NCBI RefSeq assembly: GCF_003018115.1 | Contig: NZ_CP027457.1 | DNA length: 64,000 nt | Strand: one strand, 5' to 3' | DNA from: Escherichia coli | Lineage (GTDB): Bacteria > Pseudomonadota > Gammaproteobacteria > Enterobacterales > Enterobacteriaceae | Shown: in pieces, positions 10,576 to 64,000 of the stretch | Position numbering within the stretch: the stretch's first letter is position 1 | Layout: every line of letters starts with the position of its first letter | Notes under the pieces: generated by a model | What the model saw: only the letters and a program-made list of their open reading frames with translations | Database searches by the model: none | Told to the model about the DNA's origin: nothing | Translations under genes and position numbers: made by a program

Positions 10576-10611
10576 ATAAAAAAGCCCCCGGAAGGTGATC
10601 TTCCGGGGGCT
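10576..10611 (-). terminator. his operon attenuator (leader terminator hairpin plus U-run)
   Basis: Inverted repeat agcccccggaag/cttccgggggct followed on the minus strand by a T-run, between hisL and hisG. Confidence 0.85.
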
Positions 10612-10674
10612 TTCTCATGCGTTCATGCACCACTGGAAGATCTGAATGTCTTCCAGCACACATCGCCTGAAAGA

Positions 10675-10725
10675 CTAGTCAGGATGATGGTGATGATGGT
10701 GGTGTTTAAATTGAACGCGTGTCAT
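10675..10725 (-). CDS. hisL: his operon leader peptide (MTRVQFKHHHHHHHPD)
   Basis: Minus-strand 16-codon ORF with seven consecutive His codons directly upstream of the attenuator. Confidence 0.93.
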   Translation of the reverse strand: MTRVQFKHHHHHHHPD

Positions 10726-13393: not shown

Positions 13394-13659
13394 AGAAAAA
13401 TTATTATGACAAGCCTCTCATTCTCTTGTCATTTCCCCCCCATTTAGGCACAATGCGCCGCTGTCAAAAAATGACTAAAAACCGACGTTTCATCAGCGTC
13501 GGTTATTTTTTGCTTCAAACCAATCATTCATACCAAGAGGCCGGGCTTCGTACCGGATAGATATTTACTAAAAATCGACAGTTGTTGTCGCTGAGGAATC
13601 CAAAAAAATGGGGCAATTTTTTGCTTACGCGACGGTTATCACCGTAAAGGAGAATGACC

Positions 13660-25578: not shown

Positions 25579-25654
25579 TGGCTCCTCTGACTGGACTCGA
25601 ACCAGTGACATACGGATTAACAGTCCGCCGTTCTACCGACTGAACTACAGAGGA
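25579..25654 (-). tRNA. asnV: tRNA-Asn (GUU)
   Basis: 76-nt reverse complement of the canonical E. coli tRNA-Asn, ending CCA, anticodon loop cuGUUaa. Confidence 0.95.
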
Positions 25655-27986: not shown

Positions 27987-28062
27987 TGGCTCCTCTGACT
28001 GGACTCGAACCAGTGACATACGGATTAACAGTCCGCCGTTCTACCGACTGAACTACAGAGGA
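27987..28062 (-). tRNA. asnU: tRNA-Asn (GUU)
   Basis: 76-nt sequence identical to the other tRNA-Asn copies. Confidence 0.95.
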
Positions 28063-29810: not shown

Positions 29811-29886
29811 TCCTCTGTAGTTCAGTCGGTAGAACGGCGGACTGTTAATCCGTATGTCACTGGTTCGAGTCCAGTCAGAGGAGCCA
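29811..29886 (+). tRNA. asnW: tRNA-Asn (GUU)
   Basis: 76-nt canonical tRNA-Asn on the plus strand, inverted relative to the other three copies. Confidence 0.95.
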
Positions 29887-44191: not shown

Positions 44192-44267
44192 TGGCTCCTC
44201 TGACTGGACTCGAACCAGTGACATACGGATTAACAGTCCGCCGTTCTACCGACTGAACTACAGAGGA
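44192..44267 (-). tRNA. asnT: tRNA-Asn (GUU)
   Basis: 76-nt canonical tRNA-Asn; 5'-flank conserved with the copy at 25579-25654. Confidence 0.95.
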
Positions 44268-45258: not shown

Positions 45259-45348
45259 GGAGAGATGCCGGAGCGGCTGAACGGACCGGTCTCGAAAACC
45301 GGAGTAGGGGCAACTCTACCGGGGGTTCAAATCCCCCTCTCTCCGCCA
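45259..45348 (+). tRNA. serU: tRNA-Ser (CGA)
   Basis: 90-nt GGAGAGATGCCGGAGCGGCTGAACGGACCGGTCTCGAAAACCGG...CTCTCCGCCA with long variable arm, anticodon CGA. Confidence 0.93.
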
Positions 45349-55066: not shown

Positions 55067-55160
55067 AAAAAAAAGCCGGCATCATGCCGGCCCAAAAAAT
55101 ATAAACAAGACGATAAAAGGCTAATAACGGTAGCATCATGACACAGAATAATAAAAAGGT
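55067..55160 (-). ncRNA. Candidate small RNA in the yedS-yedR spacer (possibly RseX); extent approximate
   Basis: Minus-strand intrinsic terminator (gccggcatgatgccggc followed by a U-run) at 55067-55091 with no ORF upstream. The 5' end is not defined. Confidence 0.35.
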
Positions 55161-59439: not shown

Positions 59440-60357
59440 ATGCTTTTGGCCGGGAGTAGTTTACTGACGTTGCTCGATGATATCGCCACACTACTGGACG
59501 ATATCTCCGTGATGGGCAAACTGGCGGCGAAGAAAACCGCCGGTGTATTAGGGGATGACTTATCGCTCAATGCGCAACAAGTTTCAGGCGTGCGGGCCAA
59601 CCGGGAACTTCCCGTGGTCTGGGGCGTGGCGAAAGGATCGCTGATTAATAAAGTGATTCTGGTGCCGCTGGCGCTGATCATCAGTGCGTTTATCCCGTGG
59701 GCGATTACGCCTCTGTTGATGATTGGTGGCGCGTTTCTCTGCTTTGAAGGAGTAGAGAAAGTGCTGCATATGCTGGAGGCGCGTAAACATAAAGAAGATC
59801 CGGCGCAGAGCCAGCAGCGTCTGGAGAAGCTGGCGGCGCAGGATCCGCTGAAGTTTGAAAAGGACAAAATAAAAGGGGCGATTCGTACCGATTTTATATT
59901 GTCTGCCGAAATCGTCGCCATCACGCTGGGGATTGTGGCCGAAGCGCCGTTGCTTAATCAGGTGCTGGTGCTTTCAGGCATCGCGCTGGTAGTGACCGTG
60001 GGCGTCTACGGTCTGGTAGGGGTTATCGTGAAGATTGATGACCTGGGGTATTGGCTGGCGGAAAAATCCAGCGCGCTGATGCAGGCATTAGGTAAAGGAT
60101 TATTGATTATCGCGCCCTGGCTGATGAAAGCGTTATCGATTGTCGGCACGCTGGCGATGTTCCTCGTCGGCGGCGGGATTGTGGTACATGGTATTGCGCC
60201 GCTGCATCACGCCATTGAACATTTCGCCGGGCAGCAAAGTGCAGTGGTGGCGATGATATTACCGACTGTTTTAAATCTGATTCTTGGATTTATCATCGGC
60301 GGCATCGTGGTGCTGGGAGTGAAAGCCGTAGCGAAAATGCGCGGTCAGGCACATTAA
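59440..60357 (+). CDS. yedI: DUF808-family inner-membrane protein
   Basis: 305-aa [35 protein letters not shown]... Confidence 0.88.
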
Positions 60358-60435
60358 TACTCGCACAGGCTATTATGCAAAATTCGCCATCTTCAACTAA
60401 GGTGAACAAGTTTCACTCGAAAAAAGGAGGCGAGT

Positions 60436-60618
60436 ATGAGCTTTATGGTTAGTGAGGAAGTTACGGTTAAAGAGGGCGGCCCGCGGATGATTGTCACCGG
60501 ATACTCCAGCGGTATGGTTGAGTGTCGTTGGTATGACGGTTACGGGGTCAAGCGGGAAGCTTTTCATGAAACCGAGCTTGTTCCGGGGGAGGGGAGTCGT
60601 TCTGCGGAAGAAGTTTGA
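60436..60618 (+). CDS. yodC: Small protein of unknown function (DUF2158)
   Basis: 60-aa ORF preceded by an AAGGAGG RBS. Confidence 0.85.
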   Translation: MSFMVSEEVTVKEGGPRMIVTGYSSGMVECRWYDGYGVKREAFHETELVPGEGSRSAEEV

Positions 60619-60630
60619 AAGGGTATCATT

Positions 60631-60665
60631 AACACCAGGCCGGATCACTTCCGGCCTGGTGTGCC
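60631..60665 (+). terminator. Stem-loop downstream of yodC
   Basis: Inverted repeat caccaggccggatcacttccggcctggtg. Confidence 0.6.
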
Positions 60666-60788
60666 AATGCCTGCAATGAATGATAGTCGCGTCTTATCAT
60701 GCCACCATTATAAAATTATCGCTGTTTTGCGGTACGCTATCGCCAGGTTATGCCAGAATCATAAAAAAGCAGGTTGGGAGTCGTCAGG

Positions 60789-63313
<2,525 letters not shown>

Positions 63314-63492
63314 TTACCAGGATGATTCTCAAAACAGCACAAATTATCAAAGATGATTTTTTCGGGAGCGATCCCGCTGACGCCAGAGCCACCAAGGGGT
63401 GACGTGCGTCACATTTCTATTCATAAGTAGCGTTAATCATTCATATGGCGAATATTTTCTTGTCAGCGAAAAAAATTGCGGATAAGGTGATG

Positions 63493-63579
63493 AACACATC
63501 AGATTTCCTGGTGTAACGAATTTTTTAAGTGCTTCTTGCTTAAGCAAGTTTCATCCCGACCCCCTCAGGGTCGGGATTT
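63493..63579 (+). ncRNA. dsrA: DsrA small regulatory RNA (Hfq-dependent; rpoS activator and hns repressor)
   Basis: AACACATCAGATTTCCTGGTGTAACGAATTTTTTAAGTGCTTCTTGCTTAAGCAAGTTTCATCCCGACCCCCTCAGGGTCGGGATTT, with terminal hairpin and U-run, matches DsrA as I recall it. Confidence 0.9.
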
Positions 63580-63592
63580 TTTTATTGTGCAT

Positions 63593-63820
63593 TCAACGAT
63601 TCACTTCAGAGACGCTGAAGTCATGAATATCCAGTTCGAAGGCATCCGCCAATTCACGCCATGTATGATATTCACGTCCATCGACGCTAACGTGTTCAGA
63701 ATCGTTCTGGCTGCGATGAACTTCGCTTTCGCTAATTTCATTGATCGCCGCCAGCAGGGCATCGACATCGACGCTGACCTCACGTTTTGCGGTATCGCTG
63801 TACTCTTTTGCGGTTTTCAT
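63593..63820 (-). CDS. yodD: Small stress-induced protein
   Basis: ORF 63593..63835; start at MKTAKEYSDTAKREVSVDVDALL... (75 aa). Confidence 0.85.
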   Translation of the reverse strand: MKTAKEYSDTAKREVSVDVDALLAAINEISESEVHRSQNDSEHVSVDGREYHTWRELADAFELDIHDFSVSEVNR

Positions 63821-63982
63821 CATCTTTCCTCGCAACCGTTACTCTGTTGTTGCCGCCAGTCGTTAAGTCCGCCTGGCATCTCTTAAGTATAGACCGTCGA
63901 GAAAATCAGCACTCGCGCGCGCCTGGCGCTGCCAGAAAAACGAAATTGTTCTACACTGGCACAAAGCCACAGGAGGAAAACG

Positions 63983-64000
63983 ATGAAGGTGAATGATCGG
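63983..64000 (+). CDS. dsrB: DsrB, first codons only (MKVNDR...); continues beyond the window
   Basis: ATG at 63983 preceded by AGGAGG; only 6 codons are visible. Confidence 0.6.

Follow-up and report, generated by a model that had tools for sequence, protein, structure and literature searches.

The stretch of DNA between yedP and yodD in the analysed window, which comprises 64,000 nucleotides of Escherichia coli contig NZ_CP027457.1, is almost certainly the chromosomal dsrA gene of this strain, with a weak promoter of its own, an intrinsic terminator, and a trans-acting small RNA (sRNA) as its product. The first-pass annotation had recognised the DsrA sRNA from the letters alone, at 63493-63579, and this identification was borne out by the Rfam covariance model for DsrA (RF00014), which cmscan placed on the + strand at exactly these coordinates. 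The match covers model positions 1-85 of 85 and scores 102.5 bits, far over the gathering score of 60, with an E-value of 9.7e-20 in a permissive scan of positions 60000-64000 against all 4227 Rfam families; it was retained when the whole window was scanned at the gathering threshold (E = 1.5e-18). The matched sequence reads AACACATCAGATTTCCTGGTGTAACGAATTTTTTAAGTGCTTCTTGCTTAAGCAAGTTTCATCCCGACCCCCTCAGGGTCGGGATTT.

The comparison with an annotated reference, which the same annotation had proposed as a check, was equally clear. Positions 63383-63600 of the window align with the dsrA region of K-12 MG1655 (NC_000913.3; ncRNA b1954, "small regulatory RNA DsrA", annotated at 2025223-2025313) at 100% identity, namely, 218 aligned bases with zero mismatches, spanning the 110 nt upstream that hold the promoter, the gene itself and its tail. 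The curated K-12 gene is 91 nt long, and corresponds to 63493-63583 in the window; the Rfam match, like the classical RNA, is 87 nt long and ends at 63579. Throughout everything that can be compared between the two loci we found no difference, as promoter, 87-91-nt RNA and tail are identical, the flanking genes are the same (yedP, yodD, dsrB and rcsA), the three stem-loops with the terminator are alike, and both RNAs are complementary to rpoS and hns; the host strain itself is not K-12. The features of the locus are collected in Table 1.

Table 1. Features of the dsrA locus, in positions of the 64,000-nt window.
Feature	Position	Strand	Description and evidence
yedP	62480..63295	-	271-aa ORF; mannosyl-3-phosphoglycerate phosphatase-related protein in 100% identical E. 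coli record
Putative dsrA -35 hexamer, TTGTCA	63460..63465	+	Read from sequence; identical to K-12
Putative dsrA -10 hexamer, TAAGGT	63483..63488	+	Weak, 3/6 matches to TATAAT; identical to K-12
dsrA (DsrA sRNA)	63493..63583	+	RF00014 match, identity to K-12 b1954, fold
Stem-loop 1 (DsrA nt 4-22)	63496..63514	+	7-bp stem, U7-G19 wobble, AUUUC pentaloop; seen in the fold
Putative rpoS-pairing region (DsrA nt 10-32)	63502..63524	+	3' half of stem-loop 1 plus linker; by complementarity
Putative hns-pairing region (DsrA nt 31-43, UUUUAAGUGCUUC)	63523..63535	+	By complementarity
Stem-loop 2 (DsrA nt 35-59)	63527..63551	+	Structurally plastic central hairpin
Stem-loop 3, Rho-independent terminator	63553..63583	+	Hairpin 63553-63577, T-run 63577-63583; terminator scan
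yodD	63593..63820	-	75-aa translation MKTAKEYSDTAKREV... / MKTAKEYSDTAK...; peroxide/acid resistance protein YodD
dsrB	start 63984	+	Downstream of yodD

Weak Rfam matches overlapping the same place were rejected: anti-hemB (25.7 bits), Betaproteobacteria toxic sRNA (21.7 bits) and EF3314_EF3315 (17.4 bits) lie far under their gathering scores, and merely reuse the terminator hairpin of DsrA.

Work on DsrA goes back to the mid-1990s, and the RNA serves as a model of a trans-acting sRNA, one that connects the RpoS and H-NS regulons with low temperature and acid stress. The finding is thus correct but ordinary, since the gene is already known and nothing about it is new, and the discovery value of the match is very small. 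Its practical value lies in annotation, in that a functional non-coding gene is recovered from an interval without any feature in the automatic RefSeq annotation of the E. coli records examined. Among ten RefSeq/PGAP E. coli records listed, of the 5338 genomes with a match, none carries an annotated feature under dsrA, which agrees with the earlier comment that this gene is readily overlooked. This absence is an annotation gap and not a biological one. Among the records that we opened, an ncRNA feature is present only in the curated K-12 record.

Both flanking genes were found where the first-pass annotation had put them. The order in the window is yedP (-), dsrA (+), yodD (-) and dsrB (+), with rcsA coming next in a 100% identical record, and the order in K-12 is alike, with dsrA between yodD (b1953) and yedP (b1955). 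The gene yedP is divergent from dsrA and yodD convergent with it, the stop codon of the latter (63593-63595) lying 10 nt past the end of the DsrA T-run. Of 5426 complete E. coli genomes, 5344 contain a match to the surrounding 1.6 kb, which is 100% identical in strain 2824 (from chicken) and 95-99% identical in most other strains; in strain 2824 the annotated neighbours are dgcQ, yedP, yodD and dsrB and, further out, rcsA and fliR. The 87-nt dsrA sequence is present in 5338 of these 5426 genomes, in 4973 of them at an identity of at least 99%.

Two observations on this distribution are worth recording. The places matching dsrA number 5341, two of them on plasmids, and 88 of the 5426 complete genomes are without a match. 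Moreover, in the clinical E. coli strain B-1109 (NZ_CP117971.1, 1792-2566) dsrA is interrupted by an IS1A element, such that only DsrA nt 22-87 still lie beside yodD, and stem-loop 1 and the promoter are split off. This strain is probably a natural dsrA mutant.

Orthologues were collected by scanning a genome collection of species representatives with the pattern GATTTCCYGGTGTAACGAATTTT, which returned 71 matching stretches, all of them from Enterobacteriaceae. The genera include Escherichia, Salmonella, Citrobacter, Enterobacter, Klebsiella and Raoultella, as well as Buttiauxella, Atlantibacter, Siccibacter, Franconibacter and Trabulsiella. Together with two E. coli reference loci these matches gave a set of 73 loci for the analysis of synteny. 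In 63 of the 73, dsrB begins at a fixed distance of about 450 nt downstream of dsrA; rcsA follows dsrB in 61 loci, and in 50 yedP is found some 200 nt upstream of dsrA. Among the loci that lack one of these genes, many stop short of the place where it would be expected. The alignment used for structural conservation (A2) holds 67 distinct sequences. One of the loci, on NZ_JAALBX010000009.1 (1266-1360; labelled Citrobacter freundii M-21), has a dsrA of the Atlantibacter type, close to those of three other loci in the set (L029, L030 and L044); the remaining Citrobacter sequences differ from it, which suggests that this assembly may be mislabelled or misclassified.

The predicted minimum free energy fold of the window RNA consists of three stem-loops, at -31.9 kcal/mol compared with an average of -16.2 kcal/mol for dinucleotide shuffles (z = -5.18; none of 200 shuffles as good). 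The first stem-loop agrees with the element solved by NMR (PMC5766208). Its pairing reaches 99.8% in the 67 orthologues, a conservation that is partly by construction, as most of this stem-loop is fixed by the search pattern; the pair between nt 9 and nt 17 occurs as A-U, G-U and G-C in these sequences.

The third stem-loop, namely the terminal hairpin with its U-run noted in the first-pass annotation, was recovered by the terminator scan. It has ten pairs, seven of them G-C, a loop of five and the tail TTTTTTATTG, the first T of the T-run closing the stem. Across the 67 orthologues it is 93.2% paired, and five of its ten pairs change on both sides, that is, they covary; the observed covariation score was reached by none of 500 shuffles, and sliding the partner columns lowers the pairing from 88% to 26-46%.

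The exact pairing of the second stem-loop is ambiguous here, in agreement with its published plasticity, in which two conformations are in equilibrium (PMC5766208). Over the 67 species, the long stem of Model A, or Rfam type, is only 77% paired, Model B from NMR is 91.5% paired, and a 5-bp palindrome, CUUGC/GCAAG, is 98.8% paired; no covariation separating these alternatives was found in the 67-sequence alignment. A CUUCUU repeat permits a slip of register between them. Within this plastic, variably paired region lies AAGUGCUUCUUGC, which is nearly invariant across the alignment, and this combination of conservation with variable pairing is what would be expected of a putative target-pairing seed.

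The putative promoter was located by eye and by its conservation across genera. A consensus promoter scan did not detect it, as the -10 hexamer shares three of six positions with TATAAT and the scan requires at least four. The spacer between TTGTCA and TAAGGT is 17 nt long and the first transcribed base would be 63493. In the 71 upstream regions compared, namely those of the window and of 70 Enterobacteriaceae loci, TTGTCA occurs at the same register in 43, and TAAGGT, TAATGT or TAGTGT occupies the -10 register in 47. We infer that TTGTCA is the -35 element from this position, that is, from the 17-nt spacer and the start at 63493, and from the work of Repoila & Gottesman, which we take to support this assignment. 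Transcription on the + strand would thus begin at 63493 from a weak sigma-70 promoter belonging to dsrA itself, and would stop at the intrinsic terminator at 63553-63583, yielding a three-stem-loop RNA of 87-91 nt. In K-12, DsrA is known as a discrete small RNA that requires Hfq and is induced at low temperature (PMC6537650, PMC5766208); since the promoter is identical to that of K-12, the same behaviour may be expected in this strain.

To evaluate the pairing of DsrA with its targets we used the rpoS leader and the hns sequence of K-12, rather than those of the window's own genome, as both loci fall outside the window. When folded without restriction, duplexes between full-length DsrA and either the 631-nt rpoS leader or the hns mRNA were long and full of loops, at -40 to -54 kcal/mol, and could not be interpreted; this approach was rejected and replaced by target windows of 30 nt and by a test of the longest perfect run. 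With the former, the best duplex joins DsrA nt 9-40 with positions -125..-96 of the rpoS leader, at a dG of -28.8 kcal/mol, and one of 300 dinucleotide shuffles of DsrA was as good. With the latter, the longest run measures 12 bp, between nt 20-31 and positions -118..-107, a length reached by two of 1000 shuffles. The fold predicted for positions -150 to +30 of the rpoS leader has this same upstream segment paired with the Shine-Dalgarno/AUG region, and therefore binding of DsrA to the segment would free the ribosome-binding site.

In the case of hns, DsrA nt 31-43 form a perfect Watson-Crick run of 13 bp with codons 3-7 (+7..+19), which none of 1000 shuffles reached. The loop-tolerant duplex-energy test with 30-nt target windows was not significant for this mRNA, 82 of 300 shuffles being as good, such that for hns the contiguous-run test alone is significant. 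Repression of hns has been described at the translation-initiation region (PMC6537650), with which the 13-bp run agrees.

In published work DsrA is described as an Hfq-dependent RNA, induced at low temperature, which activates rpoS by an anti-antisense mechanism and represses hns (PMC5766208, PMC6537650). These complementarities fit such a mechanism, in which DsrA would base-pair in trans with its targets with the help of Hfq. Nucleotides 10-32 would pair with the upstream arm of the inhibitory rpoS leader hairpin, around -120 to -97, and the ribosome-binding site so freed would allow translation of RpoS to be activated, this being the anti-antisense step. Nucleotides 31-43 would pair with the hns mRNA just past its start codon, at +7..+19, and synthesis of H-NS would be repressed. 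The assignment of both regions to these roles draws on sequence complementarity, and the rpoS activation and hns repression predicted from it fit those published for DsrA.

RprA and ArcZ are likewise Hfq-dependent, and their pairing site in the rpoS leader is the same upstream hairpin arm, but they are unrelated to DsrA in sequence, are encoded elsewhere in the genome and respond to different signals. At the dsrA locus of the window neither the RprA nor the ArcZ model of Rfam gave a match, the DsrA model being the only one of the three to do so. These two have been named as the other sRNAs that, like DsrA, activate translation of rpoS (PMC3794604, PMC3937726).

That the interval might instead encode a small protein, with the match to an RNA model being incidental, is hardly credible. 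Two open reading frames do exist mechanically, one of 36 aa at 63437..63547 (-) and another of 116 aa at 63536..63886 (+), yet the longer of the two runs antisense through the whole of the annotated yodD gene, and single-base indels among the orthologues in the dsrA span (columns 29, 34 and 61 of alignment A2) would break any reading frame. Conservation, moreover, tracks the paired stems and the variably paired seed, not codon positions, and both the curated K-12 annotation and PGAP leave this interval free of any CDS. The small-protein reading is effectively refuted, and the view of the first-pass annotation that the overlapping frames are spurious holds.

Nor do we give any appreciable weight to the notion that the hairpin with its T-run is a mere terminator of yedP or yodD, such that no independent RNA gene would exist. 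It is true that yodD converges on the hairpin, with its stop codon 10 nt from the T-run, and that the terminator scan of the - strand revealed no other terminator-like site for this gene. However, yedP is transcribed away from the hairpin, and on the strand of yodD the hairpin is followed by GAAACUUGCUU, without a U-run. Furthermore, the 60 nt upstream of the hairpin are part of a full-length covariance-model match and, together with the promoter, are conserved across genera, which is not expected of a bare terminator. The hairpin may additionally stop transcription of yodD, in which case the interpretation of the interval as an sRNA gene would still stand.

With dsrA so identified, the convergent arrangement leaves room for a further speculation, which we consider improbable though less so than either of the alternatives above. 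Transcripts of yodD might read through the DsrA hairpin and give rise to an RNA fully antisense to DsrA, which would couple expression of the stress protein YodD to the titration or processing of the sRNA. Such read-through is conceivable because the yodD stop codon is only 10 nt away, the scan of the - strand revealed no terminator-like site belonging to this gene, and the hairpin is without a U-tail in that direction. The idea is drawn purely from the layout of the genes; if true, it would add an unreported regulatory layer to a classic sRNA.

Elsewhere in the window three further RNA elements score over their Rfam gathering thresholds, namely, the rseX sRNA at 55068-55157 (-; 98 bits), STnc240 at 13439-13513 (+; 68.2 bits) and the histidine operon leader at 10576-10699 (-; 131.6 bits). 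The window also contains four tRNA-Asn(GTT) genes and one tRNA-Ser(CGA) gene, the five tRNA genes lying at 25579-25654 (-), 27987-28062 (-), 29811-29886 (+), 44192-44267 (-) and 45259-45348 (+); genomic islands are known to integrate at asn tRNA genes.
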